Part shown: piece after piece, positions 9,474-63,868 of the stretch
How the letters are laid out: each line of letters opens with the position of its first letter
Position numbering within the stretch: position 1 is the first letter of the stretch
Assembly (NCBI GenBank): GCA_964356415.1
Contig: CAYHHK010000001.1
Location: 38,057-102,056 of the forward strand
Length of the DNA: 64,000 bases
DNA from: an uncultured Flavobacteriales bacterium
Lineage (GTDB): Bacteria > Bacteroidota > Bacteroidia > AKYH767-A > 2013-40CM-41-45
Reading direction: 5' to 3'
The notes under the pieces: model-generated
Database searches by the model: none
What the model saw: only the letters and a program-made list of their open reading frames with translations
Told to the model about the DNA's origin: nothing
Program-made: the position numbers and the translations under genes

Positions 9474-9505
9474 GCTGTATTAAATTTCATTGAATATCCA
9501 TTTTA

Positions 9506-33627: not shown

Positions 33628-33652
33628 AGCTCAATTTTTATTTTGGTTTAAT

Positions 33653-34450: not shown

Positions 34451-34461
34451 ATTTATTATTT

Positions 34462-35184: not shown

Positions 35185-35204
35185 TATTTCAATTTTTAAA
35201 ATGA

Positions 35205-36755: not shown

Positions 36756-36794
36756 ATCGTATTGATTTAGTTTAGTTTTTAGTTTGAACGATTT

Positions 36795-47772: not shown

Positions 47773-48557
47773 TTTGAAAGTGCTTTATTATTTTCCCAGA
47801 CGGGTTTTCTTTTCTCTAAAAATGAATTGATGCCTTCATTCGCGTCATGGGTTTCCATCAGTTGCCTTACATACATGCTTTCAAGTTGCTGAAGAAAATT
47901 GGTTAAGACATGATTGAATTTAGCCCGTGATGCTCTTACTGCAAAGCGGAGTGAGGTGGCGCTTTTTGGAATAATTTGATCTGCAATCCATTTTTCAATA
48001 CCTGTATCCATTGTGGCCTTGTCATCAAACAGTTCATTCACCAATCCTATTTGTCTGGCTTCTTCTGCATGAAAGGTCCTTCCGGTAAGAAGTATTTCTT
48101 CTGCCCTTGCCAAGCCGATTTTTTCAGGAAGGATAACTGAAGCAGGAGGGGGGAAGACCCCAAGTACAATTTCGGGCTGCCCGAATCTGGCTGTTTTGTC
48201 GGCAAAAATAAAATTGCACATAATCGCAAGTTCCATTCCGCCACCAAGACATTGTCCTGAAACTTTTGCCAGAGTTGGGATGGACAGATCTCTTAGCGTA
48301 TAAAACAATGCATGAAAATTCTGAAGCATGGTTGAAGCAAATTCTTTTTTATGTTCTTCTACACTTGCCCCAAAGGAAAAATGCTTCCCTGCGCCTTCAA
48401 GAATAATCAGCTTAACCTGGGAATTAGCACGAAATGTATTTAATACAGACTGCAATTCTTCAATCATCACGTGGTCAAGTACATTTCCTTTGCCGTCATC
48501 AAGAATCACATTGATAACAGTATCATTATGGCTGTAAATAATTTTAACTTTTTCCAT
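47769..48557 (-). CDS. enoyl-CoA hydratase/isomerase (crotonase) family; dienoyl-CoA hydratase (Dch)-like candidate
   Basis: 262 aa with crotonase oxyanion-hole segments (LEGAGKHFSFGAS; CLGGGMELA). Function inferred from size and context with had/oah-like genes. Confidence 0.8.
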   Translation of the reverse strand: MEKVKIIYSHNDTVINVILDDGKGNVLDHVMIEELQSVLNTFRANSQVKLIILEGAGKHFSFGASVEEHKKEFASTMLQNFHALFYTLRDLSIPTLAKVSGQCLGGGMELAIMCNFIFADKTARFGQPEIVLGVFPPPASVILPEKIGLARAEEILLTGRTFHAEEARQIGLVNELFDDKATMDTGIEKWIADQIIPKSATSLRFAVRASRAKFNHVLTNFLQQLESMYVRQLMETHDANEGINSFLEKRKPVWENNKALSK

Positions 48558-48559: not shown

Positions 48560-49660
48560 TCAGGTATTAACTTTTTGGTATTGTGGCGAGATCGTTCTGT
48601 GCATTTCATCATTCCATTCATTTCCCTGCGCCAGGAGTTGACGCAGTTTGATGAAATCTACTTCACGGTCCTCTTTTGGTCCGTCATTAAAGGCTTTGAA
48701 TCCAGCCTTCGCTTCTGTCATCATATTTAGTGCAAGCCACTCGCGGCTGCCTTCCTTGTTTTTATCCCAGTGTTCGAGTTTGAATTTGCGAACTTCACTG
48801 ATGGTTTTTGTCATGCAGTTGGGGAATGTGTAAAGTAGTTTGGTGATCAGGTTATTTACCGCCTTGTCCAGCATCGATAAATCTGTTTCGGCAGTTGCTA
48901 AAATCTCTTTTGCTTTTTTCAATTCATCGCCTGATTTGGAAGTTCCGAAAATGACACGTCCGAATTCATTAGTGATTTTATCTGTTACCACCATTGGATT
49001 TGGAGTAAACTGACCATTCACTTTTAGCACAGGAACTATTTCTGTAATAACCCCAAAATAATATGCCTGATGTGCGGTCCACGGTTCACAAAGCGTGAGA
49101 GACATCATTGCCCGCTCAACGCCTACAAAAAGCGGAAGGAAATCAGTGGCGCCTCCAATGGGTGCACTCCCGTGTTTTGGACCTGCCTGGCCGAATCTTG
49201 CCATGTCACTGGCTATGCTGAAGTCGCAGGCCATTCCTATTTCCTGGCCACCGCCAATACGCATTCCGTTAACACGATTGATTACAGGTTTTTCGCATTT
49301 CAATATTGCACTTACCATGTCATTGAACAACCGCATATATTGTGAGTACTCCTGCGGGTTTCCGGCATAATACTCGGCATACTCTTTTGTGTTTCCGCCT
49401 GTACAAAATGCTTTGTCACCAACTGCAGTAAAAACAACTGCAACTACACTCCTGTCGTTTGATGCTTCTCCAAATGCCAGAATGATTTCTTTTACTGCCG
49501 AAGTCGTGTATGAATTATATTGTTTTGGATTATTAAGATAAATCCAGGCATTGTATAACCCATCTATGGGATTGCCATTTTTGTCAAGGCAGTTCTTTTT
49601 CTCAAAAATGATTTCTTTATATACTGCTGTGACGATGTTGTGATTTTTTAGGTTGCTCAT
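48560..49660 (-). CDS. crotonase-superfamily protein with a C-terminal extension; 6-oxocyclohex-1-ene-1-carbonyl-CoA hydrolase (Oah/BamA)-like candidate
   Basis: ~366 aa from the ATG at 49660 (MSNLKNH...). Crotonase core (AFCTGGNTKEY; GMRIGGGQEIGMACDF) plus a ~100 aa C-terminal extension. The longer track ORF would overlap the upstream T9SS gene. Confidence 0.7.
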   Translation of the reverse strand: MSNLKNHNIVTAVYKEIIFEKKNCLDKNGNPIDGLYNAWIYLNNPKQYNSYTTSAVKEIILAFGEASNDRSVVAVVFTAVGDKAFCTGGNTKEYAEYYAGNPQEYSQYMRLFNDMVSAILKCEKPVINRVNGMRIGGGQEIGMACDFSIASDMARFGQAGPKHGSAPIGGATDFLPLFVGVERAMMSLTLCEPWTAHQAYYFGVITEIVPVLKVNGQFTPNPMVVTDKITNEFGRVIFGTSKSGDELKKAKEILATAETDLSMLDKAVNNLITKLLYTFPNCMTKTISEVRKFKLEHWDKNKEGSREWLALNMMTEAKAGFKAFNDGPKEDREVDFIKLRQLLAQGNEWNDEMHRTISPQYQKVNT

Positions 49661-49664
49661 TGTT

Positions 49665-50852
49665 CTAGTTTGTAATTTGTAATTTAAATAAATATTGTTT
49701 TTGGCCTCTCGTTGCTGAAAGTAAATACAACCCCGGTGATAATTCAGAAACATCAATTTGCTTGGAATTCTTTGCTGTCACAACAGGGATTCCTCCAAAT
49801 GAATAAATTTTAATATCTGAGATGCAGTTGTCGGGAGAGTTGATAAATACACAGTTTGTGGATGGGTTCGGATAAATACTTAATTGTTCATTCTGATTTT
49901 CATTTATTGCATCAAGTATGCACCAGGTGATTCCGGAAGATATTGTTCCAAAATTGAAGTCAATGAATGGTGTGGATATTGGCGGGGTTGAGTCGCAAAA
50001 ATCAAAATCTCCCTTCATCCAGCCCCAATTGACCGAGCTGTCGGACACTTGAAAGCTTCCTGTTGCTGTTCCTTTAACGGTATCTGCATTATACCAGCTG
50101 TCGTTCACAATTATTCTTCCGTTGTTATCAAGCGTTGCATTGTGTTGAACTGAATCAGCATTCAGCAGGCTTTTATATAGGATGAAATACCCTGAAGAAA
50201 GGTTCTTAAATATTTCAGTATTCCAGGAACTGTGCAAACAAGTAATGCTATCTGAATTGGTAAAGGTTCCAAGATTTGTAAGATCGGTAAATGTGAGGGT
50301 ATTATTATTTGTGTATTCCCCGGTATTTGTAAATTGATTGTATGTGCAAATCCCATTATTTGTAAAAGTTCCGCCGGTAGTGATACTGTCAATATCCAGG
50401 AAACTGCCGTCGTTGATTATAGCGCCTGTGCTGTATAGACTGTCAATGTTTTGAATGGTTCCTGTATTGGTGAAGTTCACATAGCTCATCAGCGAACGGG
50501 CTGTAAGTGTCCCACTATTCGAAAATGAGCCTGCCTGTACAAACAAGTAGCGTATATCAAGTGTACCATGATTTGTCAGTGTTCCTCCATTTACCAGTAT
50601 GTCCCGTGAAGAATTGTTTTCTATTAGTGATCCTCCTGCATTAATGGTGATTCCTCCGGAAGGGAGATACCAGCCGGTGTCAAGTGCGACAGCGTGGTTG
50701 ATGGTAACTGTAAAGCCGGGCAATGGTATGCAGGTACAACTCCATGTCAACGGGTTCATCCAATTTCCATTTTGAACAGAAGTTGCATTCTGCGAAACAC
50801 CGGAAAAACAAATGGAGAATAAAGCCAGAAGGGTGCTAAGAAATTTGCGCAT
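49665..50852 (-). CDS. secreted beta-helix-like repeat protein with a T9SS C-terminal sorting domain, embedded in the catabolic operon
   Basis: Signal peptide MRKFLSTLLALFSICFSGVSQ, many FTNxGT-type repeats, and C-terminal SIYPNPSTNCVFIN...GLYLLS...LFKLQI. Confidence 0.75.
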   Translation of the reverse strand: MRKFLSTLLALFSICFSGVSQNATSVQNGNWMNPLTWSCTCIPLPGFTVTINHAVALDTGWYLPSGGITINAGGSLIENNSSRDILVNGGTLTNHGTLDIRYLFVQAGSFSNSGTLTARSLMSYVNFTNTGTIQNIDSLYSTGAIINDGSFLDIDSITTGGTFTNNGICTYNQFTNTGEYTNNNTLTFTDLTNLGTFTNSDSITCLHSSWNTEIFKNLSSGYFILYKSLLNADSVQHNATLDNNGRIIVNDSWYNADTVKGTATGSFQVSDSSVNWGWMKGDFDFCDSTPPISTPFIDFNFGTISSGITWCILDAINENQNEQLSIYPNPSTNCVFINSPDNCISDIKIYSFGGIPVVTAKNSKQIDVSELSPGLYLLSATRGQKQYLFKLQITN

Positions 50853-50858: not shown

Positions 50859-51968
50859 TTATTTGAAATCGGGAATAAGAACTGATCGTTTTGAATATTT
50901 ATGCTCAAGAGTATTTCTAAATACTTCATTTATTTTCGACATAGGAAAAGTTTGCACAAACTGTGATATGTTCAGTTTGCCATTGGATATCAGGTCTAAA
51001 ACCTCGGGATATAGTTCTGCCCTGCATCCCCATGTGCCGATGAGTTTGGCGTCATATGCCATCAGGTTGCTTAGCCGGACTTCTGTTTTATCCATTGTGA
51101 AGCCAACAATTGAAAGCGTTGAAGCGTACGTGATAAGGTTAAAAGCCAGATCCTGACCTGCTTTTGTTCCGCTGAATTCAAATATTTTCCATCTGAATTT
51201 TGGCGCATTGATTTCCTTAGCAAGCGCTTTTACTTTTTCTTTGATTGTTTTCTGATCAAGGCTTTTGATATTCAAAACCGCATCTATGCCATTTTCTTTT
51301 GCAGTGGTCAGCTTCGCATCATTGATATCCAGCGCAATTACTTTAGCTCCGAATATTTTTGCGATCAGTGCTCCATAAACTCCTACGCCTCCAACACCGA
51401 TAACAATGGCAAGATCACCCGGTTCCAGTTCTGATTTTTTAATGACCTGATAAGGTGTTGAAATTGCATCAGCAATAACCGCGAGATGTTCGAGTGGATA
51501 TTTATTCAAAACACTTTTTGGAACTTCACATAGAAATTTAGAGGGTACTATTATATGTGAGGAAAATCCTCCCTGGAAATCGTTTCCGGGCATTAATTGA
51601 TTTCTGCAAATATTGCTTCTCCCATTTTTACAGAACTCGCAATCACCACAAGGCAACACGGCAGGAATGATTACTGCTTTATCAAGCCATTTATTATCAC
51701 CGGTAATTACTGTCCCGCTGATCTCATGACCTAACGTCAGAGGAAGTGCATGCTTCGTCTGTACTCCTGCATGCCAAAAGCTGATGTCTGTATGACACAC
51801 ACCGCATCCTGCAATTTTCACAATGACCTCTCCGTCTTTTAATACCGGTAGTGGGTTTTCAATAAGTTGAAATTCCTTGTTGAGTTCAACCATTTGCCAT
51901 TGATGCATTTTTTCGGTTGAAGTAACTTTTGCAGAAGCAAGCTTGATTTTATCAAATGTTTCAGGCAT
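50859..51968 (-). CDS. zinc-dependent medium-chain alcohol dehydrogenase family; 6-hydroxycyclohex-1-ene-1-carbonyl-CoA dehydrogenase (Had/BamQ)-like candidate
   Basis: 369 aa with a catalytic Zn motif (GCGVCHTD), a structural Zn Cys4 (CGDCEFCKNGRSNIC) and a GxGxxG Rossmann motif (IGVGGVGVYG). Confidence 0.8.
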   Translation of the reverse strand: MPETFDKIKLASAKVTSTEKMHQWQMVELNKEFQLIENPLPVLKDGEVIVKIAGCGVCHTDISFWHAGVQTKHALPLTLGHEISGTVITGDNKWLDKAVIIPAVLPCGDCEFCKNGRSNICRNQLMPGNDFQGGFSSHIIVPSKFLCEVPKSVLNKYPLEHLAVIADAISTPYQVIKKSELEPGDLAIVIGVGGVGVYGALIAKIFGAKVIALDINDAKLTTAKENGIDAVLNIKSLDQKTIKEKVKALAKEINAPKFRWKIFEFSGTKAGQDLAFNLITYASTLSIVGFTMDKTEVRLSNLMAYDAKLIGTWGCRAELYPEVLDLISNGKLNISQFVQTFPMSKINEVFRNTLEHKYSKRSVLIPDFK

Positions 51969-51970: not shown

Positions 51971-53233
51971 CTATAGGTTTTTGTTTTCAAAAAGGATAGC
52001 TGTTCCCTGTCCGCCGCCAATGCATGCAGATGCGATCCCATATTTTACTTTTCTGCGTATCATTTCTTTAGAGATGGTGAGAGACAACCGCAATCCTGTG
52101 GCGGCAAGCGGATGCCCTATTGCAATGGCTCCTCCGTTTACATTCAGTTTGGTTCTGTCAATTCCCAGTTCCTTTTCGCAACCGATTACCTGCGCCGAGA
52201 ATGCTTCGTTAATTTCAAGCAGACCAATATCGGAGATATTCAATCCAGTCATTTCAAGCAAAAGTCTGATTGCCGGAACCGGGCCCAATCCCATGTATTT
52301 CGGATCGATGCCACAACTTGCGCCTCCGATTATTTTTGATATTGGTTTTAAATTCTTTTGTGAAACAGTTTGCAAATTTGCAATAACTGCAGCGGCTGCG
52401 CCATCAACAATTCCACTGCAATTTCCTGCCGTAAGAACTCCCACTTTGTCAAACACTGTAGGCAGTTTACCCAGCGCATCCAGCGTTGTGGCACGGATAT
52501 GTTCATCAATTGAAAAGGAGCTTGTTCCTTTTGGGAGAAAAGCTTTTCTTGATTTAAGGCCTTCAATATTAAACGTGGCGGACTGCAACGATGCGATTTC
52601 CTCAGAGAAGATTTTATTTGTTGTGGCATCAATTGCTCTTTGAAAAGAGGTCATTGCATATTCATCGCAGTCATTTCTTGAGATATCATATTTCTTTGCA
52701 ACATTTTCGGCTGTATATCCCATCGGATATCCGGCGGCAGTATCGTCCAGAGCTTCCCAAAGCATATCCTTAAATACAGGCCTGCCTAAGGGATATCCCA
52801 TTCTGTTTCCAAAACTCACAGTAGGGGAGAGTGACATATTTTCTGTGCCAACACAGAGAACTGTGTCTGCTTTTCCCAGAGTGATTTGTTCTGCACCTGT
52901 AATAATTGTTTCAAAGCCTGATCCGCAAATCCTTTGCACCATTAATGCCGGAACTTCAGCCGGGATTCCGCTAAAGAGAGATATGTGGCGTGGAAGAAAA
53001 TAGGAGTCTGTTGAACTTTGTCCGATATTGGCTGCAATCACCTGATCAATTTCATTAGGTTTCACTCCTGATTTTTGCAGCGTGGATATTGCGGCAAAAA
53101 TCCCTAAATCGGTAGGAGAGATTTGGGAAAGCGAACCACAGTATTTTCCAAAAGGTGTCCTTGTTCCGTCGACGAGATAAATGTCGTCGAATATTATTCC
53201 TATTCCTTTATTTATATGATGGTAGGCTTTCAC
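51971..53233 (-). CDS. acetyl-CoA C-acyltransferase (degradative thiolase)
   Basis: RTPFGKY, catalytic Cys (VQRICGSGFE), NVNGGAIAIGHPLAATG and C-terminal CIGGGQG. Apparent GTG start at 53233 overlaps the upstream stop (GTGA). Confidence 0.85.
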   Translation of the reverse strand: MKAYHHINKGIGIIFDDIYLVDGTRTPFGKYCGSLSQISPTDLGIFAAISTLQKSGVKPNEIDQVIAANIGQSSTDSYFLPRHISLFSGIPAEVPALMVQRICGSGFETIITGAEQITLGKADTVLCVGTENMSLSPTVSFGNRMGYPLGRPVFKDMLWEALDDTAAGYPMGYTAENVAKKYDISRNDCDEYAMTSFQRAIDATTNKIFSEEIASLQSATFNIEGLKSRKAFLPKGTSSFSIDEHIRATTLDALGKLPTVFDKVGVLTAGNCSGIVDGAAAAVIANLQTVSQKNLKPISKIIGGASCGIDPKYMGLGPVPAIRLLLEMTGLNISDIGLLEINEAFSAQVIGCEKELGIDRTKLNVNGGAIAIGHPLAATGLRLSLTISKEMIRRKVKYGIASACIGGGQGTAILFENKNL

Positions 53234-55131
53234 TGAATTTCAGTTTTATTTGAAACGGAAGTTTCCGTTTTTAGAAAATGCTGTTTGGCAATGAGCGCTG
53301 CTCCCAATGATGCCATGAATTGTGGATTTTCAACCGATTCAACTTCTTGCTTAAGTTTTAATCCAAGAATATCTCTCAGGTATGGATGGTAGGCGATCAC
53401 TCCTCCAATGAGATAAATGGGGATTCCGGACATGATGCGCAGTTTGGCAACCCGGTTAACAATGGAGAGATAGACGCCTTTTGAAATATCTTCAACACTC
53501 ATGCCTTCTATGAGCCATTTCATGATTTCTGTCTTGGCGAATACGGTACAAAAACTGTTCAGCTCAGTTTTATTGTTGCTGCGGGCAGCAAGAAGGCTCA
53601 TTTCACTGATGTTGAGGTCGGCCCGTTCTGCAATTTCAGTAATGAATGACCCTGTTCCTGCAGCACATTTGTCATTGAGAAAGAAATTCTCTACCTCACT
53701 GTTGATGCCGCAATGGATCACCTTGATGTCTTCTCCTCCTATGTCTATAATGTTCTTTGCACCGGGATAAGAAAAGGAGACCCCTTCTGCCGCACAATTA
53801 ATTTCTGTTTTTACAATATCTGCGTCAGGAAAATTTTTGCGTCCATAACCGGTGGCGCAGCTGGCCTTAATATTAAACTCACTACGGATTGCACTCATTA
53901 CATGCCGCACTCCAATCTTATCGCGGTTGAGTGTTTTAAGTGCTAATTTGAATGCCACTTTCGAATTGCTGTCGAGGACGATAAATTTTGTGTAAGATGA
54001 GCCGAGGTCAACACCCAAAAAATATTCTCCTGAACCTGATTTCTCTCCTTTAATGACTAATCCATTCCTAGCTTTTTGGCCACCGGCACCGCTAAATGAC
54101 TTGCCGATCAATGATGGATCAAGTGATTTCATAAATGCACTGTTGCTGCGAGAGGTCATTGCCTTTACCATATTTGTAACAGCAAGATTGATGGGAGTGC
54201 GGATATAGTGCTTGCGGCCGTACTCAACTATTTTTCCATTCATGAAATCAATTTCAGTTTGCCTGTTGTTTATCAGGTCAACTGCAAGTGAAGGGAAATG
54301 GTCCCCTGCTTTTTTAAGGTAACGCAAACATTTGCGAATGAATTCATCTTCAAATATTATTTTTTCCGCTTTTGCTACTTCCAGTGCCTCTTCAATTACC
54401 AGTTCGATAAGTTCTACGGTATCGGGTATCTCCATTGCTTCCTTTATGGTGAGCTTACCGATTCCGCACAGTGCTGACAAGGAGGAATTCAGGATTGTTT
54501 TTTCCCAGATCTGTTTCAGTAATTCAAAGGATGAGATGAATTTGGTATTCAGATTGACTTTGTTCAGCAAGTCACTTATTTGCTGAGCAGCGCCGGCTTT
54601 TGAATCATCGAGGGAAGCGATGTAATTGGGCGGATTAAAAAATGTGACTTTTACAATATTCGGGGCATTCAGGTTGCCGGCAAAGTTGATCACAAGGCGT
54701 AATGTTTTACTTTCACCAATTCCTGAGGCAAGAATCTGCTCGACATCAATGCCGTTTTGTGCACTTACAAAAATGGTTTTATCAAAATTAAGATTCATCA
54801 CCTGTTCGACGAATGCTGATGTTTGATATCCTTTTATACTCGCTATAATGATGTCAGGGTTGAAATTTCGTAATTCGGTGAGGCTGCTGTAGATGTTATC
54901 AACGAAAATATGTTTCTGTATTGCTCCGTCCAGTTTTATTCCTTCTTTCCTGATTAAATTAATTTTAATTTTATCAAAATCGCATACCGCCACATTACAT
55001 CCGGCTTCTTTCAGATGAGCAGAAAGAATGAGCCCGACAGGTCCCAGGCCTACCACAGCTACTTTTTGTTCTGCCTTTTCATTTCCTGAAGGATCTGGAG
55101 TTTGTGATCTGATATTATTTTCTTCACTCAT
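53230..55131 (-). CDS. fusion protein: N-terminal 2-dehydropantoate-2-reductase (ApbA/PanE)-like NAD(P)H oxidoreductase domain :: C-terminal BadF/BadG/BcrA/BcrD (HgdC-type) ATPase/activase domain
   Basis: 633 aa. The N-terminus carries VAVVGLGPVGLILSAHL plus KPR-like motifs (~aa 20-330). The C-terminus has YFLGVDLGSSYTKFIVLD and CAAGTGSFITEIAE, the acetate/sugar-kinase-fold activase signatures. Confidence 0.75.
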   Translation of the reverse strand: MSEENNIRSQTPDPSGNEKAEQKVAVVGLGPVGLILSAHLKEAGCNVAVCDFDKIKINLIRKEGIKLDGAIQKHIFVDNIYSSLTELRNFNPDIIIASIKGYQTSAFVEQVMNLNFDKTIFVSAQNGIDVEQILASGIGESKTLRLVINFAGNLNAPNIVKVTFFNPPNYIASLDDSKAGAAQQISDLLNKVNLNTKFISSFELLKQIWEKTILNSSLSALCGIGKLTIKEAMEIPDTVELIELVIEEALEVAKAEKIIFEDEFIRKCLRYLKKAGDHFPSLAVDLINNRQTEIDFMNGKIVEYGRKHYIRTPINLAVTNMVKAMTSRSNSAFMKSLDPSLIGKSFSGAGGQKARNGLVIKGEKSGSGEYFLGVDLGSSYTKFIVLDSNSKVAFKLALKTLNRDKIGVRHVMSAIRSEFNIKASCATGYGRKNFPDADIVKTEINCAAEGVSFSYPGAKNIIDIGGEDIKVIHCGINSEVENFFLNDKCAAGTGSFITEIAERADLNISEMSLLAARSNNKTELNSFCTVFAKTEIMKWLIEGMSVEDISKGVYLSIVNRVAKLRIMSGIPIYLIGGVIAYHPYLRDILGLKLKQEVESVENPQFMASLGAALIAKQHFLKTETSVSNKTEIQ

Positions 55132-55148: not shown

Positions 55149-56399
55149 CTATTTAACATTGATCTGTGCTCGCTGCGCTTGTGGATTTCGATGCGAAGCG
55201 TGTTGAATTTGTTCAATAAAGGCTTCAATCTTTGTAATGCTTTGTCCTTCCGAGAAAAATCTCAGGTCACACAAGTCACCTTCAATTACAAGATACGGAA
55301 TCCCTGTTTCGTCTTTTAACCTTTTTGGCAAGCCGAACTTCGCATTTGAATTGTTGAAGCAGGTTTTTGAATCATGAAATATGATGCCATCACAAGAGAA
55401 TTCCTTCAGCCATTTTGCCAACATTTTCATTTTAGCTTTTTCACTCCTGTTGATGAAAATATTTGTATAGGCAAGCGCCGATGATTTAAATGGATCTTTT
55501 TCATCAAACTCATCAAATATCCAGCTGTTGCAATACGTAGATGCAACTACACCGGTGTTGTTCTGAATGAATAAATCAGAAAGCATTCTGTTCTTTCCCC
55601 AGATGGGCATACCATCCCAGAAGATGCGTGATTGTTCTTTTTCAACAACTCCGGTTTTCTTCAAAATATTTTCCTGTAGCTCTTTTAAAAGTGTCTGGTA
55701 ATATTGTTTTGCTGTTTCTGTACCCCGCAACACCACAATGGGCCCCATATGTATGGTTGCATCAAAAAAACTGAGTGGTGCAGGTGATGCTTTAGACGTC
55801 CTTAAAACCTGTTGCCAAAGGAGGGTGGCCTCTTTGCTGAGCAATAAGGTTTCCCTGAAGGAATCAATGTCAAATTGTTTCCCACTGGCTTTTTCACATG
55901 CAGGAATAATATTTTTATGCTGCTGAACACCTGTGGTAATTATTTCCTCTGAAACATCATCCACGTATCTTGGCGGGGTTATACCTGTAATAGGGCAGTT
56001 AAATTCTTTGGCATAAAAGTTAAACCAATCCTGAACTTCCCTGCATTGATTGGTATTGTAAACTATCAGGTCGGGTTTAGGAACGCCTTTCATTCCATAG
56101 TGAGATTGTAAAGGCGTTTTGCCGCTGAGGTAAGAACCGATGTCACTCGTCGTGTATGAGCATATGTGGTTTGAGAAGCCAAGTTTACCCGCTTCAGGAA
56201 TGAAATCGGTAGCGGTACGTGTGGCACCAAGGAGTGCACCGTGATTTTCAGGAAAATATACATTGAACCCAAAAGATCTTAGCAGTTCGGCTGGCCCAAC
56301 GCTTGTACACCATGCGATTTTTCGTTCACCGGTTTCCAATGATCGAAAATATTCGCTCATCACTGCTTTTAATAACTGTGTTGATTTGATTTCGTACAT
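55149..56399 (-). CDS. 2-hydroxyacyl-CoA dehydratase / benzoyl-CoA reductase B/C family subunit (HgdB/BcrC-like), stand-alone
   Basis: HGD-D family features (conserved Cys and C-terminal ...CDLRFF...). The track start at 56471 is TTG. ATGs lie at 56441 and 56399; the latter abuts the ligase stop (TGAtATG) without overlap. Confidence 0.7.
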   Translation of the reverse strand: MYEIKSTQLLKAVMSEYFRSLETGERKIAWCTSVGPAELLRSFGFNVYFPENHGALLGATRTATDFIPEAGKLGFSNHICSYTTSDIGSYLSGKTPLQSHYGMKGVPKPDLIVYNTNQCREVQDWFNFYAKEFNCPITGITPPRYVDDVSEEIITTGVQQHKNIIPACEKASGKQFDIDSFRETLLLSKEATLLWQQVLRTSKASPAPLSFFDATIHMGPIVVLRGTETAKQYYQTLLKELQENILKKTGVVEKEQSRIFWDGMPIWGKNRMLSDLFIQNNTGVVASTYCNSWIFDEFDEKDPFKSSALAYTNIFINRSEKAKMKMLAKWLKEFSCDGIIFHDSKTCFNNSNAKFGLPKRLKDETGIPYLVIEGDLCDLRFFSEGQSITKIEAFIEQIQHASHRNPQAQRAQINVK

Positions 56400-56400
56400 A

Positions 56401-58149
56401 TCAGGTTGCAAATATTCTTCCAACAGTATTTTGAAGTTCATCCAGACGGATGATATAAATTTCTTCTTCAACAGGGTTTTCGTCTCCGTATAAATTTTCC
56501 AGATGCGCTTTGTATGCGCTCACCACATTTCGCGGAGCTACTTTCATGGATGGAGTCAATGTTCCTTTCTCCAGAGAAAGCTCATCATCGATAATCATAG
56601 CAGCTCTTATTTGTGCAAACTTTTGTCCGATGCCACAATTTGCATCATGTAAGCAACCGTGTAAGCATTTGCTGAGTTCATTCAGGTCGCGGGGACAGAA
56701 GCAACCTTCCTCAGGAGAAATGTTGTAGTCAGGATGATTTAAAAGTTTTTTATTTGGGAATAATATGGCAACAGGATAGTCTTGTCCGCTGCCTACTACC
56801 ATGGCGAATGAGATGTAGTGGCATTTCATCTCGATGAGTTTTTCAAGGTCTGACGGAACAACTTTTTCTCCGTTTGACAATTTAAAGATGCGGTCTTTGC
56901 GGGTGATAAGTTTCAGACCATTTTCTGTAATTTCTCCAATATCACCGGTGCAAAACCAGCCATCATCAGTAAATATTCCTGAATTCGCTTCGTCATTTTT
57001 ATAATACCCTTTCATTACGTTGGGACCTTTCACCTGAATTTCTCCGTCATCTGCGAGTCTGATGCTTACTCCGGGCAAAGGACTTCCTACAATACCATGA
57101 TGGCGTTTCTTATTTGGATTTGTGAGCGTACAGCATGGGGAAGTCTCAGTGAGACCCCATCCTTCTATGACTGGTACATGTCTTTTTTCAAATTCGTCGG
57201 AGAGATTTTTAGGAAGCGAAGCCGCTGCAGTGAAAATGAATTTCAATTGGGGATGAAAAAAGAGTTCTTCTGCTTCCTGATCATTTCTTGTAAGATCAAT
57301 AAGTGACTGGTAAACTTTTGGAACGCTGAAAAAGACTGTTGGCTGAATAATTTTCCAGTTTTCCATGAGCACTTTAGGATCTTTTCCATAGCCGGATTCA
57401 AGAGAGATGGTAGCGCCATTGTAAAGTGCCGTGAATAATTCAAAAATACCTCCGAAACTGTGATGCCACGGGAGATAGGAAAGGAAGCGATCAGTGGATG
57501 TTATTTTCAAGACCTTGGATAGCCCTGCTTGTTGTGATAAAATATTTTCATGTGTAAGTTGAACACATTTGGGAATACCCATCGTTCCTGATGTATACAT
57601 GTTCAGACAAATTTCATCAGGTGAAGCATTAGGATCAATTGAAAAACTTGTATCAGAATTAGTTTTTAGCAACTCATCAAAATGGTGCTGATTGTCAAAA
57701 TATTTTTTTTCAATGTTGTCAAAAACAAAAAGATGCCTGACATGAATGTTATTACTGAGTCTGCCTAATTGCAGTTCTCCGGCTACGCTAAGGAATTTTG
57801 CATCAGAATGATTGATGAGTAGTTCTGCCGTTTCCTGATGAAAATAGGCGAAGATGGGAACACTGATTCCACCTGAAACCATCACAGCAAGTTCAAGTTC
57901 AAGCATTTCAAGGCGATTCGGAGAATAAATTACCATCTTATCCCCGGCGATAAAGCCGAATCGCTTGAGGTTAAAAGCAATCTTTAAAATGTCATTGTAG
58001 AAATTGTGCCAGGTGATGCCTTCGAAAATTCCGTTTCTCTTCTCTTGAAAAACAATATTATCCCGAAACGCCCTTACATTGTGATGCAATAACATAGAAA
58101 TGTTAGGAATCATTTTATCCGGCTTAAATTCAGATTCAAGAGTTTTCAT
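56401..58149 (-). CDS. AMP-forming acyl-CoA synthetase/ligase
   Basis: 582 aa with the AMP-binding motif YTSGTMGIPKCV and C-terminal ligase motifs. ATG at 58149. Confidence 0.85.
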   Translation of the reverse strand: MKTLESEFKPDKMIPNISMLLHHNVRAFRDNIVFQEKRNGIFEGITWHNFYNDILKIAFNLKRFGFIAGDKMVIYSPNRLEMLELELAVMVSGGISVPIFAYFHQETAELLINHSDAKFLSVAGELQLGRLSNNIHVRHLFVFDNIEKKYFDNQHHFDELLKTNSDTSFSIDPNASPDEICLNMYTSGTMGIPKCVQLTHENILSQQAGLSKVLKITSTDRFLSYLPWHHSFGGIFELFTALYNGATISLESGYGKDPKVLMENWKIIQPTVFFSVPKVYQSLIDLTRNDQEAEELFFHPQLKFIFTAAASLPKNLSDEFEKRHVPVIEGWGLTETSPCCTLTNPNKKRHHGIVGSPLPGVSIRLADDGEIQVKGPNVMKGYYKNDEANSGIFTDDGWFCTGDIGEITENGLKLITRKDRIFKLSNGEKVVPSDLEKLIEMKCHYISFAMVVGSGQDYPVAILFPNKKLLNHPDYNISPEEGCFCPRDLNELSKCLHGCLHDANCGIGQKFAQIRAAMIIDDELSLEKGTLTPSMKVAPRNVVSAYKAHLENLYGDENPVEEEIYIIRLDELQNTVGRIFAT

Positions 58150-58160: not shown

Positions 58161-59021
58161 TTAAACAGCCAGTGCCTGTTTTTCCAATAACTTTTTATGG
58201 CGATAGCCTCCCCACAAGGCTGCTCCAAGGGCGCCGGCATAAATGGCATCGGGATGCGTTTTTATTTCAAATTTTTTTCCTGTTTCTATTAATTGCTCTT
58301 CAATTGCCTGAATCATTCCTGTGTTTAGTGCCATGCCACCTGTAAGAAAAATAGGGGATGCTGCCTTTAATGAACTCATAAGTTTGATAATTCGGGAGGC
58401 GATGGAAAGATGAATTCCTTTGATGATGTCCGGTGTAGAAATCCCCCTTGATACCATGTTGATTACATCCGTTTCTGCCAATACAGCACATATCCCTGAG
58501 GAAATTTCGGGTTGGTTTGCCTTCATTGACACCTCTCCCACTTCCTCAATGGACAATCCTAAATAGCGCGAAATATTTTCAAGAAACTGGCCTGAACCGG
58601 AAGCGCATTGTCCTGTCATTTTGTAATCTTCCACACGCGCATTCTCACTGATGCGGATTGCCCGCACGTATAAAGCACCAAGATCAACAACGGTTCTTGC
58701 TTCAGGAAAAAAATAATTGGCTCCTCTCGCATGGGTAGTCATTCCATAAAAGTGGCCCCGCTTTTTTTTAACTAAATCGCCTTCTCCTGTGGAGGCAAGG
58801 TATGCAATGTCTTCATATTGAAGATTGTGTTTTGTAAGCATTGCCTGCACCATCTCATCAGCGACTTGTGTAGGGTTGCGTTTCCTTATTTTTTCTGTGT
58901 GCTTGTCATTGATGATGGGATGGTCAGAATAGTCCATTAGTACTAACTTTATGAAGTTGCTTCCGACGTCTATTCCCATTGTGAAATAGGATTTTGACAT
59001 ATTTGAATTATTTTTTATCAT
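58161..59021 (-). CDS. BadF/BadG/BcrA/BcrD-family ATPase, short form (BcrD/BadG-like subunit)
   Basis: 286 aa with the MGIDVGSNFIKLVL ATPase phosphate-1 motif and CASGSGQFLE. It is the last gene of the four-gene reductase cluster. Confidence 0.8.
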   Translation of the reverse strand: MIKNNSNMSKSYFTMGIDVGSNFIKLVLMDYSDHPIINDKHTEKIRKRNPTQVADEMVQAMLTKHNLQYEDIAYLASTGEGDLVKKKRGHFYGMTTHARGANYFFPEARTVVDLGALYVRAIRISENARVEDYKMTGQCASGSGQFLENISRYLGLSIEEVGEVSMKANQPEISSGICAVLAETDVINMVSRGISTPDIIKGIHLSIASRIIKLMSSLKAASPIFLTGGMALNTGMIQAIEEQLIETGKKFEIKTHPDAIYAGALGAALWGGYRHKKLLEKQALAV

Positions 59022-59106
59022 TATTGTTCGCTTATCTTCTGTTAGAAAATCATTAGGTGGCTTTTTTGGGAAAGTACAATATTGTGATTAAATTAATATA
59101 TGATAT

Positions 59107-59910
59107 TTATGATGATTGCTGTGTGCTGAAGACGAACTTCTTATTTTTAATTTTATTTTCTTTTGTTTCAATTTTCTCAAGTGGGGCATTTATAATGGAG
59201 TAAACACGGTTTTTTAATTCGTCAACACGGTCTTTGGTATAACCCTTTGTATCAATGGGTGCATGGATAATAATCTCTGACATTCCGGGGCCTGATTTCC
59301 CGGTTAATATTCCTTTGCGCTGAATTCTTTTCCAATTGGTTAAAAAAGTAATTGGTAAAATGGGAACTTGCTTCTGAATTGCCAGAGCAAATGCACCGGC
59401 TTTGAATTCACCCATGAGAGGAGCATTTTTCGATACTGTTCCCTCAGGAAAAATTGCCAAAGGATTTCCATTGGCTAATTCTCTTGACATTCTTTTTAGT
59501 GCTTTTATTGATCCACTGGCGTTTTGCCTGTCAACAAGTATATTCATACCTGAGGTGTAAAATATTTTAAACAGTGGCCATTTTTCAATTTCTTTCTTTC
59601 CGGTAAAAACAAAATACCTGTTAAAAGTAGTGTATAGGCAGGGAATGTCAATGAAAGAGGAATGGTTGGGACAAATAATATATCCTCCCTTTTTTGGTAT
59701 GTTATTTCGGCCTTTTACGTATGGAATAATGCCTCCGAGCAGTAAAAGAATCCATCCGAATATGCGCATTAATTTAAATGCATAAGGGTAGCGATCAGGA
59801 CTGTGCAGGAAGTACGAGAATGCAGGATATAAGATAATTAAAGTTACGGTGAACAGTAAAAAATAGTAAATCCTGTATGCTACTTTGAAGGGAAGCAGAA
59901 TGTACCCCAT
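59107..59910 (-). CDS. lysophospholipid (PlsC-type) acyl-CoA-dependent acyltransferase family membrane protein
   Basis: 267 aa with two N-terminal TM helices, an HxxxxD motif (NHSSFID) and FPEGT. Its start lies 3 nt after the stop of the BcrA-like gene. Confidence 0.75.
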   Translation of the reverse strand: MGYILLPFKVAYRIYYFLLFTVTLIILYPAFSYFLHSPDRYPYAFKLMRIFGWILLLLGGIIPYVKGRNNIPKKGGYIICPNHSSFIDIPCLYTTFNRYFVFTGKKEIEKWPLFKIFYTSGMNILVDRQNASGSIKALKRMSRELANGNPLAIFPEGTVSKNAPLMGEFKAGAFALAIQKQVPILPITFLTNWKRIQRKGILTGKSGPGMSEIIIHAPIDTKGYTKDRVDELKNRVYSIINAPLEKIETKENKIKNKKFVFSTQQSS

Positions 59911-59913
59911 TGG

Positions 59914-61323
59914 TTAGTTCTTTGCGGAAACCGGCAATTCCATGTCAACATTTCTTCTTGCAAACATGGCACCCCCAAGCGCTCCCATAAATATTGAATC
60001 GGTATGAATGTTTATTTTGATGTTATCGCCATAGTTTTCTTTTACCAGTTGCGTGAGATATTTAATTACTGCCTGGTTGCGTGCAACACCTCCTGTGAAA
60101 GTGAATTCATTGTAAACGCCTCCTGAACGCGCGATGAGAGACATGGCCCGCATAATTATGGCTTTGTGCAAGCCGCCAAGAATGTCAGCTCGCTTTTCAC
60201 CAAGATTGGTCAGTTCGCGCAATTCAGCTCCAGCAAATACTGTACATGTGGAGCAAATAGTTACTTCTTTCTCTGCCTCTAATGCCAGGGGACCTAATTC
60301 ATTTAATGAAATGCTCATTTCATCAGCAATATAACCGAGGTAGCGTCCACATCCGGCTGCACATCGATCATTCATTTGAAAACTGGTTACAAGACCGTAT
60401 TTATCCACTTGTATCGCTTTGGTGTCTTGTCCGCCGATGTCAAGTACTGTTCTTGTATCAGGAAAAACAGCATGGGCTCCAAATGCATGACATAAAATCT
60501 CTGAGCGAATGCATTCTTGCGGAAACGGAAGCAAGGCGCGACCATATCCTGTCCCTGTCATATTTTCTATTTCAAATTCAATATCTGCAATTTCGTCAAT
60601 GTGTTCACGTAGAGATTCGGATACGTGGTCAAAATTTCCTTTAAGTAAATTCAGTTCAGCATCAAAATTCACACTTGTATTTTCCGCGGATGTGTCAGGA
60701 AGGTTTTTGTATTTTTCTTTAAGCTCATCCATTGCTTTGTGCACAAGCTCTTTGAAGTCAAATTGAACTCGTTGGTTTTCTGATGGACTTATGCTCTTGT
60801 CCCAGACTGTCATCAATGGCTCAAAAAGTGAAATGTCGAGTTTGTTTACTTCCTCGTTGTAACGTTCAGAAACGGTATCGCGAAAGAATTGATTTTTTGC
60901 TCCAAGGTTATTATACAAATATTCATGTTTGATTTTTGGCTTAAAGGCCCTGCGTATATTCCTCAGGTGATTCAATATTTCTTCCCTCTTTTTTTCATCA
61001 GTAAAGAAGACATGACAGGTTTTTACAAGTTCATCTCCAAGTTTATCTAAACGAATTCTGAATTGCTCGTACTGAAATACACTTTCAAGGTCAGTAATAT
61101 ATTTGTTGTATTCAGGCTTTGCTTTTAGTTCTGCTTCCAGTTTTTTCTTGAGTACAGAAAATCGTGCATTGTAAATTGCTTCATCCTTCGCAATGTCAGC
61201 TGCCACTGAATAGTTTGCACGGGTATTTGTGATACCACGGCCTATGATTTCATCTTGTTCATTAATGATGACTGCTTTTGATGTTGTTGAGCCAAGGTCA
61301 ACGCCGAGATAATACTTGTTCAT
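59914..61323 (-). CDS. BadF/BadG/BcrA/BcrD-family ATPase, long form with an internal insertion (BcrA/BadF-like subunit)
   Basis: 469 aa. The N-terminal YYLGVDLGSTTSKAVII and C-terminal CAAGCGRYLGYIADE are separated by a ~200-aa helical insert, as in the larger ATP-binding BCR subunit. Confidence 0.8.
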   Translation of the reverse strand: MNKYYLGVDLGSTTSKAVIINEQDEIIGRGITNTRANYSVAADIAKDEAIYNARFSVLKKKLEAELKAKPEYNKYITDLESVFQYEQFRIRLDKLGDELVKTCHVFFTDEKKREEILNHLRNIRRAFKPKIKHEYLYNNLGAKNQFFRDTVSERYNEEVNKLDISLFEPLMTVWDKSISPSENQRVQFDFKELVHKAMDELKEKYKNLPDTSAENTSVNFDAELNLLKGNFDHVSESLREHIDEIADIEFEIENMTGTGYGRALLPFPQECIRSEILCHAFGAHAVFPDTRTVLDIGGQDTKAIQVDKYGLVTSFQMNDRCAAGCGRYLGYIADEMSISLNELGPLALEAEKEVTICSTCTVFAGAELRELTNLGEKRADILGGLHKAIIMRAMSLIARSGGVYNEFTFTGGVARNQAVIKYLTQLVKENYGDNIKINIHTDSIFMGALGGAMFARRNVDMELPVSAKN

Positions 61324-61347
61324 TTATTGTTTCCTTTTTAAAAGTGT

Positions 61348-62649
61348 TTAAGCCGAAACTACTCCCTGTGACATAATTATTTTTCGTTGCTCCAGCATCT
61401 GAAAATATGATTCAAGCCGGTTCTTAATATTTGCATATGAAAAATAGCGGGGATCAACCAAATCACTTTCGATGAAACCAACAGGAACACCACATCTTTG
61501 TTCGATTTCCCGCATCATTAATAATTGTCCTGCTGAAAATGAATTGCAGCTTTTGATTGAGTTGATTAAAAATCCGTCCGCTTTATACTCTTTAATATAG
61601 TGTTCAATTAAATCTACCCGTTGTGGCAAATTCAGGTTGGTGTAGCAGCCCATACAATATTTTGCAAGGCTCTCAAGGGGATTTTCAGGATCATGACGGA
61701 AACCTCGGTCATAAACACCACCGACTTTTGTATAAGTCGATGCGACAATCACAGCACCCATGTCATAAAATATTTTCCAAAACTCACGGAAGTTTGTCCA
61801 GTTTGGGGGACCTTCAACTACAAGTCGATATTTTTCTTCTTTTAATTCTCCTTCCGGGTTAATCGGAAGTAATCCCTTTTTAAGACGGTCATCCACTTCG
61901 TTGTATAATTCCTGATAGTATTCAAGTGCAATATCAGTTCCCCTGAACGCTGTGTTTAGAGGGCCCATATAGTACACGCCGGCGAAATATGAATCTATTG
62001 GCGAGGGTTTGTTTTTTGCGGATTCAAGAACCTTTACCCACAAATCTTCTGACTTGGCTGAGTTCTCAAGCATTTTTGAAAGGCGGTCGTAATCCAGTTT
62101 CTTTCCAGCAACTTTTTCCATCTTCGGAATCACTTCTTCTTTCAGCTGCTTCACCATATAGGTGACTTGATCGTCTGTTATTTTTCCATCTTCCTGATAT
62201 GGCGTATGCAGCATTGCAATCTCAACTCCGGGATATAATTTTTCGAGATTTTCAAACCACTTCATGAATGTGAAGCAACCAGTGTAGCTTAATAATAATA
62301 AGTCTGGCTCAGGAAGTTTTTCACCGGTAGGGCCAATATTGCCGTTGAGCATCATGCCAATGTCACACTTAACATAGGTGCATACGTCTTCGCTGAATCC
62401 GATTTTTTCAGCATCTTTAATGTATGAACCGGATTTTTTTCTCATGCCGGACTGAAGTGCATTTATTTCAGGGTAAACAGGCAGCATATCCAGTGCGAGA
62501 ATCAGTTCTGTTATGTTTCCCGGCACAAATGTGTACACGACCTTTTTACCATTCTCTTTTGCAGTACTAAGTTCAGTAAAAAGATTGCCAAGCATCTCTT
62601 TCTGAATGACCATGCTTTTTTCCTTTATTGCTTCCTTTGGATTGCTCAT
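61348..62649 (-). CDS. benzoyl-CoA reductase B / 2-hydroxyacyl-CoA dehydratase alpha-type subunit (BcrB/BadE/HgdA-like)
   Basis: 433 aa with HGD-D family features (GKKVVYTFVPGNITELILALDMLPVYPE) and conserved Cys. Confidence 0.8.
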   Translation of the reverse strand: MSNPKEAIKEKSMVIQKEMLGNLFTELSTAKENGKKVVYTFVPGNITELILALDMLPVYPEINALQSGMRKKSGSYIKDAEKIGFSEDVCTYVKCDIGMMLNGNIGPTGEKLPEPDLLLLSYTGCFTFMKWFENLEKLYPGVEIAMLHTPYQEDGKITDDQVTYMVKQLKEEVIPKMEKVAGKKLDYDRLSKMLENSAKSEDLWVKVLESAKNKPSPIDSYFAGVYYMGPLNTAFRGTDIALEYYQELYNEVDDRLKKGLLPINPEGELKEEKYRLVVEGPPNWTNFREFWKIFYDMGAVIVASTYTKVGGVYDRGFRHDPENPLESLAKYCMGCYTNLNLPQRVDLIEHYIKEYKADGFLINSIKSCNSFSAGQLLMMREIEQRCGVPVGFIESDLVDPRYFSYANIKNRLESYFQMLEQRKIIMSQGVVSA

Positions 62650-62704
62650 TTTGTAGTTTTTTCTGTGACTTAATATTTGTGAGATATCATCTTGATATTA
62701 TTAT

Positions 62705-63868
62705 TTATGCCCATAATTTTATTGAATCCGAAAACGTACCGGCCTGTTCTTTTATTACCTTGAATTGTCCCGTGTTTTCATGAAACTGGAAGTTGATATG
62801 ATTAAGACCTGCTTTATCACATGCCTTTTGTAGTTCCGGGCGATCAAGCAATGCCGGGTCACAAAAACTTGCTGCACAGAAAATGACTCCGTCTGCTTTT
62901 CTACTTATTGCTAAATCAACCAGGCGTTTCCCTTTGGGATTGCCAACGTCATATATTGCAGACGAGAAAACACTTTTTTGAAGAAAGGCATTGACTATTT
63001 CATTGACCGGATTTTCGGTAGTCGAATCAATATCACCCTGAATCCACCTTGATCCGAGCATAAAATCATCATCAATGATGTAGCATCCTGACATTTCAAT
63101 GGATTTAATTAATCCGATTGGTGGTTGTTCACAGAATGAACCTGAAATGATTACTCTTATATTATCCATTGGCTCACCTGATTCATGACGAATCAGGTTA
63201 AGCACTTCTTCAAGAACTTCATTGTGTCTTTCAACCGGAATTACCATTCCTGCACGAACGATATGGTAAACGTCAACAGCAGATAAACGCCATGGATATT
63301 CCTGGCGGATATCATAGATTGCTTCAATCAGTTTCCGGTTTCTGTTGTAGAGAGAAATGGAATGATTGAGTTTTTCGGGAGTAACTTTCACTCCATTTAG
63401 TTGGAACATATCATCCATTACTGTTTCAATCAGCTCGCGATAAAAAACCCCGCCGATGAGTGCATCAAAATTCTGCGGGTAATCAAAGTAGCGTGTAAAT
63501 TTCCCCTTCTTCACAATTTTAAACATTCCGGAAAGATTTCGTACGCAATCGCAGATTGCAGGAAAAAGAAAGCCATCAAAGTCATCAAGATTATGATCGA
63601 GCGCCATTTCTATGATGCCGCGGGGCAAATGACATATGTAGGATTGGTAATAGGCATCTCCTTTAATGATTTGTTTGCGGTCTCCAACTCCCATAATTCC
63701 TACCGGTAATGCATTTGCTGCATGAATGATTTCGCGCGGAACATAAATAGGAAGGTAACCAACAAGCAAGCGGTTAGGAGATTCCTTCTTCCATTCCTTT
63801 GCTGATGAAAAATTCAGGTCGAAAGCCAGTTCGCGACACATTTTCGTTATTTCTTCAATTGACCCCAT
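62705..63868 (-). CDS. benzoyl-CoA reductase C / 2-hydroxyacyl-CoA dehydratase beta-type subunit (BcrC/BadD/HgdB-like)
   Basis: 387 aa with HGD-D family features and conserved Cys (AICDCVRNL; GVIFCAASFCDP). It is the first gene of the cluster. Confidence 0.8.
   Translation of the reverse strand: MGSIEEITKMCRELAFDLNFSSAKEWKKESPNRLLVGYLPIYVPREIIHAANALPVGIMGVGDRKQIIKGDAYYQSYICHLPRGIIEMALDHNLDDFDGFLFPAICDCVRNLSGMFKIVKKGKFTRYFDYPQNFDALIGGVFYRELIETVMDDMFQLNGVKVTPEKLNHSISLYNRNRKLIEAIYDIRQEYPWRLSAVDVYHIVRAGMVIPVERHNEVLEEVLNLIRHESGEPMDNIRVIISGSFCEQPPIGLIKSIEMSGCYIIDDDFMLGSRWIQGDIDSTTENPVNEIVNAFLQKSVFSSAIYDVGNPKGKRLVDLAISRKADGVIFCAASFCDPALLDRPELQKACDKAGLNHINFQFHENTGQFKVIKEQAGTFSDSIKLWA

Follow-up and report, generated by a model that had tools for sequence, protein, structure and literature searches.

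We examined a 64-kb stretch of contig CAYHHK010000001.1, from an uncultured Bacteroidota bacterium; the whole of this stretch is called the window below. Four genes read on its minus strand, bcrC, bcrB, bcrA and bcrD, very probably encode a true ATP-dependent (class I) benzoyl-CoA reductase (BCR) of the Thauera 'Bcr' type, set in a catabolic island, as judged from sequence comparison. Textbooks treat class I benzoyl-CoA reductases as enzymes of denitrifying and phototrophic Proteobacteria. All four open reading frames (ORFs) are intact (58161-63868 in the ORF list), and the plus strand over this interval holds short spurious overlapping ORFs only. For bcrD an alternative start is given by the ENA gene call, which begins 14 codons later, at 58979, and predicts 272 amino acids.

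Family membership of the four subunits

Domains were assigned with Pfam profiles and with NCBIfam equivalog models, the latter read against their cut-offs. The initial annotation had described ORFs of 387, 433, 469 and 286 amino acids as two HgdA/HgdB-type subunits and two BcrAD_BadFG ATPases, and the ORF list and Pfam both agree with this description. The HGD-D profile (PF06050) matches BcrC and BcrB with 216 and 226 bits, and the BcrAD_BadFG profile (PF01869) matches BcrA and BcrD with 231 and 203 bits, the E-values of the four assignments being 1e-60 to 1e-68. The insert noticed earlier in the 469-amino-acid ATPase is real and measures about 200 residues relative to HgdC and MbdQ: BcrA aligns to these proteins at residues 3-55 and 255-458 only, leaving approximately residues 56-254 unmatched. 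The order bcrC-bcrB-bcrA-bcrD also holds, although a PlsC-type acyltransferase gene of 267 codons, lying between bcrA and bcrD, had been overlooked.

The Thauera/Rhodopseudomonas-type equivalog models are the top match for all four subunits, and three of the subunits pass: BcrC scores 455.8 bits on TIGR02263 (cut-off 421.15), BcrB 692.3 bits on TIGR02260 (cut-off 486.55) and BcrD 317.0 bits on TIGR02261 (cut-off 312.85). The same models (TIGR02259-02263) cover BadDEFG of Rhodopseudomonas palustris, to which the window enzyme is likened through the models only. Bzd-, Had- and double-cubane models give scores 3-10 times lower than the Bcr models; the Bzd models TIGR03190 and TIGR03191, for instance, reach 73 and 101 bits, under cut-offs of about 450.

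Reference sequences were taken from the source data of PMC11971306 (Fuchs et al. 2025) and identities were determined by blastp. BcrB is 67.3% and BcrC 48.4% identical to the characterised subunits of Thauera aromatica K172, whereas identity falls to 29-31% with MbdO/N and to 22-24% with BzdO/N. Scanning GTDB with BcrB as query, one genome per species, matched at least 592 species representatives; the 80 closest of these form the set of related loci used throughout (labelled L001 onwards), and their synteny was followed by tblastn. A neighbour-joining (NJ) tree of BcrB only, with 76 relatives and the references, places the window protein within the Bcr-type clade, in an FCB-group (Fibrobacterota-Chlorobiota-Bacteroidota) subclade that adjoins the Thauera-like subclade. 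Members of the FCB subclade are 62-69% identical to T. aromatica BcrB, and MbdO, BzdO and HadB lie outside the Bcr-type clade. The class I BCR-like identity proposed at the outset is upheld by the equivalog scores and by the identities to T. aromatica, and the catalytic subunits group with Bcr rather than with dehydratases, MbdO or BzdO.

An (R)-2-hydroxyacyl-CoA dehydratase with duplicated activators would belong to the same superfamily and carry the same Pfam domains, and HadB and HadC models and structures do give significant matches. HadBC and HadI of Clostridioides difficile (PDB 3O3M, 4EHT) moreover share the fold and the ATP-dependent electron injection with the window enzyme. Their models, however, score 3-4 times lower than the Bcr models (190 vs 692 bits for BcrB and 152 vs 456 bits for BcrC, the Had cut-offs being 750 and 700), identity to HadB/C is 23-27% as against 48-67% to T. 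aromatica BCR, and HadB stands apart from the Bcr clade in the tree. The window encodes four subunits including the long BcrA, with two ATPase genes in place of the single activator of the Had system, and the dehydratase explanation is effectively refuted.

Several observations weigh against the assignment to a Thauera-type reductase. BcrA, full-length and best matched by TIGR02259, stays below the cut-off of that model (439.3 vs 578 bits), and the class assignment of BcrA and BcrD rests on hidden Markov model scores only. The CoA ligase adjoining bcrD is not a benzoate-CoA-ligase equivalog, its top NCBIfam match being a long-chain ligase model whose cut-off it does not reach, and the cyclohexadienoyl-CoA hydratase (Dch) candidate falls under the equivalog cut-off of TIGR03189 (227.7 vs 292.5 bits). 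A motif scan found no CxxCxxCxxxCP ferredoxin ORF in the window, and profile annotation revealed no 2-oxoacid:ferredoxin oxidoreductase among the annotated window ORFs; in Thauera this role belongs to a 2-oxoglutarate:ferredoxin oxidoreductase. Finally, every close relative is a metagenome-assembled genome (MAG).

The BcrA shortfall is lineage-wide, since TIGR02259 gives 412-439 bits for each of the five FCB-type BcrA compared. Four Thauera-like BcrA score 538-610 bits, and three of these are likewise under 578. Judged from these scores, the shortfall is a property of the lineage and not a defect of the gene, FCB BcrA being a divergent subgroup and the cut-off a strict one. As to ferredoxin, the 80 related loci hold one small ferredoxin-like ORF within 10 kb of bcrB (L060, 129 amino acids); the other three motif matches lie in ORFs of 375-1041 amino acids.

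Cluster ligands and active-site residues

Residue invariance was counted over 76 related loci for BcrC, 75 for BcrA and 65 for BcrD. BcrD contains two cysteines only, C139 and C178, and these, like C321 and C360 of BcrA, align with the two cysteines by which HgdC binds the [4Fe-4S] cluster between the subunits; both pairs are invariant. Loss of these residues had been named beforehand as a finding that would refute the benzoyl-CoA reductase claim, and both ATPases keep their two bridging-cluster cysteines. The phosphate-2 motif DIGGQD is intact in BcrA, whereas residues 113-118 of BcrD read DLGALY in place of the DIGGQD of BcrA, HgdC and MbdQ. The odd motif as a mark of a defective subunit was considered and rejected, the DxGAL[Y/H/F] form being present in every BcrD examined, Thauera-like proteins included. 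Because BcrD departs from DIGGQD in all loci, Bcr-type reductases have two ATP sites that differ in sequence.

In the catalytic subunit BcrB, C90, C125 and C368 align with BzdO Cys95, Cys128 and Cys380, which ligate the catalytic [4Fe-4S]-OH2 cluster (PMC11971306), and Y92 aligns with BzdO Tyr97, a tyrosine near the thioester; all four residues are invariant in the related loci. E61 is invariant as well and common to T. aromatica BcrB, MbdO and HadB; we infer that it is the equivalent of BzdO Glu65, in a stretch where the alignment is unreliable. The three-cysteine ligation and the thioester tyrosine are thus common to the window enzyme and to BzdNOPQ of Aromatoleum sp. CIB (BzdNO structure 8S02, PMC11971306). 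BzdO His131 is replaced by Phe in all Bcr- and Mbd-type sequences, and by Phe128 in the window BcrB. In BcrC, five cysteines are invariant in the related loci and in T. aromatica, namely the three cubane cysteines C79, C106 and C336 and the two Bcr/Mbd-specific cysteines C246 and C262. BzdN differs in binding an [8Fe-9S] double cubane through six cysteines; BcrC lacks a cysteine at three of these six positions (the equivalents of BzdN C36, C263 and the C288/C293 region).

Of all solved structures, that of MbdONQP from Thauera chlorobenzoica (PDB 9gai/9g87) is the top relative of each of the four subunits, and MbdO resembles the window BcrB in its three-cysteine site and in the Phe at the BzdO His131 position. 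MbdONQP is a 3-methylbenzoyl-CoA reductase, an example of a class I enzyme with altered specificity, and the window genes might likewise encode a Bcr-type reductase for a substituted benzoyl-CoA (methyl-, halo- or hydroxy-) or another aryl-CoA. The separate FCB subclade, the greater divergence of BcrC (48% identity) and of BcrA (below its cut-off), and a 4-hydroxybenzoyl-CoA-reductase-like enzyme in the island would all fit such a substrate. MbdONQP is nevertheless distant, at the identities given above for its catalytic subunits, and MbdQ is without the BcrA insert. All seven inspected pocket positions of BcrB (41, 61, 92, 128 and 369-371) carry the residues of T. aromatica BcrB, and the pocket differs from that of MbdO at the same positions; 6-hydroxycyclohex-1-ene-type dehydrogenase (Had) and ring-opening hydrolase (Oah) of the unsubstituted-ring pathway pass their cut-offs close by, and the 4-hydroxybenzoyl-CoA-reductase-like enzyme would yield plain benzoyl-CoA. 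We therefore regard a substituted substrate as improbable and take unsubstituted benzoyl-CoA as the likely one.

By homology to T. aromatica BCR and to the BzdNO structure (PMC11971306), a low-potential ferredoxin, for which the window has no gene, would in its reduced state pass an electron to the [4Fe-4S] cluster bridging BcrA and BcrD. Hydrolysis of MgATP, expected at one ATP per electron, would drive the electron to the cluster of BcrC and from there to the three-cysteine [4Fe-4S]-OH2 cluster of BcrB. The latter would give the ring a hydrogen atom and then an electron, converting benzoyl-CoA to cyclohexa-1,5-diene-1-carbonyl-CoA.

Gene neighbourhood, host and relatives

The features of the window are collected in Table 1. 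The initial annotation had placed the reductase next to a lower-pathway-like gene set and a nar locus, and both are there: Had, Oah, a Dch-like protein and NarG, NarH and NarI were all found.

Table 1. Features of the window, in minus-strand reading order
Feature	Coordinates	Strand	Length, family matches and remarks
bcrC	62705..63868	-	387 aa; electron-transfer subunit of the catalytic dimer; TIGR02263
bcrB	61348..62649	-	433 aa; substrate-binding catalytic subunit; TIGR02260
bcrA	59914..61323	-	469 aa; long ATPase with insert of ~200 aa; TIGR02259
PlsC-type acyltransferase	59107..59910	-	267 aa; PF01553 99 bits, TIGR00530 105.6 bits
bcrD	58161..59021	-	286 aa; short ATPase; TIGR02261
Acid-CoA ligase, AMP-forming, ACSL/FadD type	56401..58149	-	PF00501 and PF23562
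'HgdX', lone alpha-type BCR/HAD-family subunit	55149..56441	-	PF06050 207 bits
Ketopantoate-reductase (KPR)-family 2-oxoacid reductase::activase fusion	53230..55131	-	633 aa; ApbA, ApbA_C, BcrAD_BadFG; TIGR00241 168 bits
Thiolase	51971..53233	-	420 aa; Thiolase_N, Thiolase_C; TIGR01930 384 bits
had	50859..51968	-	TIGR03201 453.5 bits (cut-off 338.65, passes)
Type IX secretion system (T9SS) C-terminal sorting-domain protein	49665..50852	-	TIGR04183 Por_Secre_tail 36.8 bits (cut-off 23)
oah, ring-opening 6-oxocyclohex-1-ene-1-carbonyl-CoA hydrolase	48560..49756	-	TIGR03200 588.3 bits (cut-off 464.45)
dch-like cyclohexa-1,5-diene-1-carbonyl-CoA hydratase	47769..48557	-	TIGR03189 top match
3-Hydroxyacyl-CoA dehydrogenase + enoyl-CoA hydratase fusion	45766..47772	-	FadB/FadJ-type NCBIfam matches
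MocA (molybdenum-cofactor cytidylyltransferase), XdhC-type maturation factor, SDR	43584..45769	-	
narG	36795-40412	-	1205 aa; Molybdopterin, Molydop_binding
narH	35205-36755	-	Nitr_red_bet_C
narI	32899-33627	-	Nitrate_red_gam
4-Hydroxybenzoyl-CoA-reductase-like molybdoenzyme	8523..12298	-	fused gamma+alpha subunit 930 aa; FAD beta subunit 316 aa

Following ring reduction, Dch would hydrate the diene, Had would oxidise the product and Oah would open the ring to 3-hydroxypimelyl-CoA. This downstream route is of the dienoyl-CoA type of Thauera and not that of R. palustris: the R. palustris-type BadI model gives only 123 bits on Oah, as compared to 588 bits for its own family. The listed TTG is probably not the true start of oah, which would lie about 35 codons further downstream. 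For the FadB-like fusion we predict a role in beta-oxidation of the C7 product, and together with thiolases it would shorten the ring-opened compound; the island also carries an acyl-CoA dehydrogenase and a second thiolase. NarGHI could pass the reducing equivalents to nitrate, and nitrate-dependent aromatic degradation is a genomic potential only.

The T. aromatica K172 system is alike in the order of bcrCBAD, in subunit sizes, in the link to dch, had and oah, and in the cluster cysteines and inspected pocket residues. T. aromatica is a betaproteobacterium, whereas the window host belongs to the Bacteroidota, and the lower-pathway genes of the window follow bcrD at its 3' side, in contrast to the order had-oah-dch-bcrCBAD of Thauera-like loci and of the more distant proteobacterial, planctomycete and myxobacterial loci. 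The standard order in the FCB clade is bcrC-bcrB-bcrA-bcrD-(ligase)-HgdX-KPR::activase-thiolase-had. Unlike Thauera, the window operon thus embeds a ligase/HgdX/KPR-activase module, and it also contains the acyltransferase insert.

That acyltransferase occurs between bcrA and bcrD only in the window, L017 and L020 among the related loci, and is probably not part of the reductase; its N-terminus is hydrophobic. The gene of the T9SS sorting-domain protein sits between had and oah, and in L020 a related gene (34% identity) lies between bcrB and bcrA. The bcr operon seems to be a recurrent site of insertion for unrelated genes of secreted proteins.

The host is placed at phylum level, in the Bacteroidota: GC content is even across the window (0.37-0.44), the cluster includes a gene with a T9SS sorting domain, and its closest relatives come from MAGs of Bacteroidota and Ignavibacteria. 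The FCB host named in the initial annotation is thereby confirmed. The source is metagenomic and the MAG names of some relatives are plainly unreliable ('Bifidobacteriaceae', L008/L013), and a proteobacterial fragment misjoined to a Bacteroidota contig, during assembly or binning, was therefore weighed. We reject such a chimera. The window proteins and their neighbourhood are identical in four independent assemblies, base composition stays even over the 64 kb with the sorting-domain gene inside the operon, and FCB-type BcrB forms a clade of its own with a lineage-specific operon architecture, the same gene order recurring in dozens of MAGs on contigs of up to 3.6 Mb. The 'uncultured Bifidobacteriaceae bacterium' MAG (CAYRJA01) carries two Bacteroidota-type bcr loci, L008 and L013, with BcrB 90% and 85% identical to the window protein; its label, and possibly its bin, looks wrong, and 'binchicken' MAG names look unreliable for taxonomy.

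The 80 closest BcrB relatives, of at least 592, are 67-94% identical to the window protein, all in MAGs. Nearly all bear the label of Bacteroidota (Chitinophagaceae, Saprospiraceae, Flavobacteriales, Vicingaceae, Bacteroidales), Ignavibacteria, Calditrichaceae or Chlorobiota. Their sources include lakes, among them Lac Pavin, as well as groundwater and a membrane bioreactor, and the nearest match is a MAG from the Lac Pavin water column. A tblastn search of 72,556 plasmids with BcrB returned only distant matches of the 2-hydroxyacyl-CoA-dehydratase family, at 26% identity or less.

Dearomatizing reductases had been called essentially unreported in this group of bacteria. For the literature this is fair: among searchable papers we found none dedicated to the Bacteroidota/Ignavibacteria bcr clade, and a mangrove study of 2025, with one Bacteroidota MAG in its list, describes the phylum as 'rarely reported' for this function. 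For databases the statement goes too far, because hundreds of Bacteroidota and Ignavibacteria MAGs carry the same operon, auto-annotated as BCR; at least 592 species representatives have a BcrB relative, and, with sequences clustered at 90% identity, more than 120 clusters share over 80% identity with the window BcrB and bear the NCBI/JGI name 'benzoyl-CoA reductase subunit B'. It is overstated also because Krumholzibacteriota MAGs with bcrABCD, a MAG-inferred class I BCR in another phylum of the FCB superphylum, were published in 2024 (PMC10936416). Class I BCR and MAG-inferred benzoyl-CoA pathway genes outside the Proteobacteria are likewise reported from metagenomes in PMC11704145. The enzyme is an ordinary member of the Thauera-type family, mechanistically not new, and its genes are already auto-annotated in public records.

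The remaining genes of the window are mentioned for completeness. The MocA/XdhC/SDR trio lies divergently upstream of bcrC in most related loci; in the window its MocA and XdhC maturation genes (44311-45769, minus strand) are close to the bcr genes. Within the nar locus (32899..40412) a gene for a ScdA/RIC iron-sulfur repair protein separates narH from narI, and the 265- and 149-amino-acid ORFs of the region give no clear match to the NarJ family. Two MFS transporters and genes of molybdenum-cofactor synthesis lie 3' of the locus; the cofactor set in 14113-28313 and the nar region is full and comprises MoaA, a MoaC/MogA fusion, MoeA, a MoeB-like protein and MobA. The same minus-strand interval together with the nar locus also encodes a second hemerythrin-domain protein and a beta-class carbonic anhydrase.

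For the 4-hydroxybenzoyl-CoA-reductase-like molybdoenzyme, TIGR03194 (828 bits, cut-off 995), TIGR03193 (167 bits) and TIGR03195 (200 bits) are the top matches, none of them reaching its cut-off. An insert rich in cysteine (C119, C123, C139, C142, C147, C156) is present in the FAD-binding beta subunit, and with its six cysteines it resembles the extra [4Fe-4S] loop of HcrB. Adjoining the acyl-CoA dehydrogenase and thiolase of the island are hydantoinase A/B-type genes of 728 and 560 codons (3107-6956, minus strand), members of a family that also includes ATP-dependent acetone and acetophenone carboxylases and oxoprolinases. A TrpB-like enzyme dependent on pyridoxal phosphate is encoded at 7097-8464. 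Beyond the window, 218 bp upstream of bcrC and on the same strand, lies a gene of the tryptophanase/tyrosine-phenol-lyase family (L001 7187-8563), which scores 673 bits on the subfamily model and reaches neither equivalog cut-off. The tryptophanase-family and TrpB-like genes hint at aromatic amino acids as substrates.

An accessory module 3' of bcrD

Directly 3' of bcrD, a module of ligase, HgdX and KPR::activase spans 53230-58149 on the minus strand; it was absent from the initial annotation and is found also in L005-L075. Its conservation was counted over the 41 FCB-clade loci in which 5.5 kb or more of sequence follows bcrD. HgdX lies within 6 kb in 32 of the 41, and further downstream in five Bacteroidales-type loci; the KPR::activase fusion is present in 31 and the ligase, next after bcrD, in 27. 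Synteny of the related loci revealed no beta-type partner gene near HgdX.

HgdX is equally distant from HadB, BcrB and MbdO, with 26-28% identity to each, and HadB is its top solved-structure relative (163 bits); the Had system is thus the closest solved relative of HgdX, and not of the BCR subunits. The protein keeps the three-cysteine site, the PEN glutamate, the equivalent of BzdO Trp46 and both thioester-binding tyrosines. Two additional invariant cysteines, C55 and C314 (440-amino-acid numbering), line the predicted acyl-binding pocket, at or beside the ligand positions of the second cubane in BzdN and in the double-cubane cluster protein (DCCP). The DCCP motif comprises seven cysteines, CX19CX18-19CX29CX166-170CX32-34CX32C, six of which are cluster ligands (PMC7317905). 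HgdX has Cys at four DCCP ligand columns (C104, C143, C314 and C371), and C55 is offset by one residue. We considered HgdX as a full DCCP and rejected this: the sixth ligand is absent, and HgdX retains the Trp equivalent to that which in BzdO fills the space of the second cubane, as well as both tyrosines, so an alpha-type CoA-ester enzyme is favoured over a DCCP. The double-cubane model NF040772 gives HgdX 64 bits, under a cut-off of 350.

In all 32 sequences compared, the KPR::activase fusion retains C489 and C528, the cluster cysteines of the activase. Its N-terminal domain aligns with solved structures of the KPR family, and the Lys (IWEK) and Glu (TEID) motifs of this domain are presumably the catalytic ones of KPR; the KPR family includes D-2-hydroxyacid and D-mandelate dehydrogenases. 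Variants of the module occur: KPR and activase are separate genes in L075, in the Bacteroidales-type L043 an ADP-forming acyl-CoA synthetase replaces the AMP ligase and adjoins a separate KPR, and in the Oligoflexia locus L081 HgdX and the activase adjoin an aminotransferase.

Taken by family, the quartet of ligase, 2-oxoacid reductase, dehydratase-like subunit and activase would supply every function needed to turn a 2-oxoacid into an enoyl-CoA and back. The same functions occur in the Fld and Had pathways of clostridia, with parts that are not orthologous to those of the module. The substrate could be an aryllactate, feeding benzoyl-CoA, or else 2-hydroxyglutaryl-CoA, which would link the C5 product to 2-oxoglutarate. 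Along the first route, arylpyruvate would be reduced to (R)-aryllactate, activated to aryllactyl-CoA and dehydrated to a cinnamoyl-type CoA, which beta-oxidation would convert to benzoyl-CoA or 4-hydroxybenzoyl-CoA. The alternative would be a reverse hydroxyglutarate route from glutaconyl-CoA to 2-oxoglutarate, regenerating reductant for ring reduction. We tentatively suggest, while holding it doubtful, that the module is an undescribed branch of the BCR/HAD radical enzymes, in which a lone HgdX works with an activase of its own (fused to KPR in Bacteroidota), the aromatic-amino-acid route being the most attractive function. No description of the module was found in the literature.

In uncultured Bacteroidota, Ignavibacteria and Calditrichota, the window enzyme and its relatives make up a coherent clade of vertical structure, which offers new, distantly related sequences of the oxygen-sensitive 'biological Birch reductase'; in the window the reductase is accompanied by a full ring-opening pathway and a respiratory nitrate reductase. 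An active enzyme would mean that members of a phylum usually seen as degraders of polymers and proteins also mineralise aromatic rings without oxygen, which would change who counts in the turnover of aromatic carbon in anoxic settings. The conserved dehydratase-like module is a fresher lead than the reductase and the part likeliest to repay experiments. Should its aryl route prove true, protein-degrading Bacteroidota would be unrecognised mineralisers of aromatic rings in anoxic waters.

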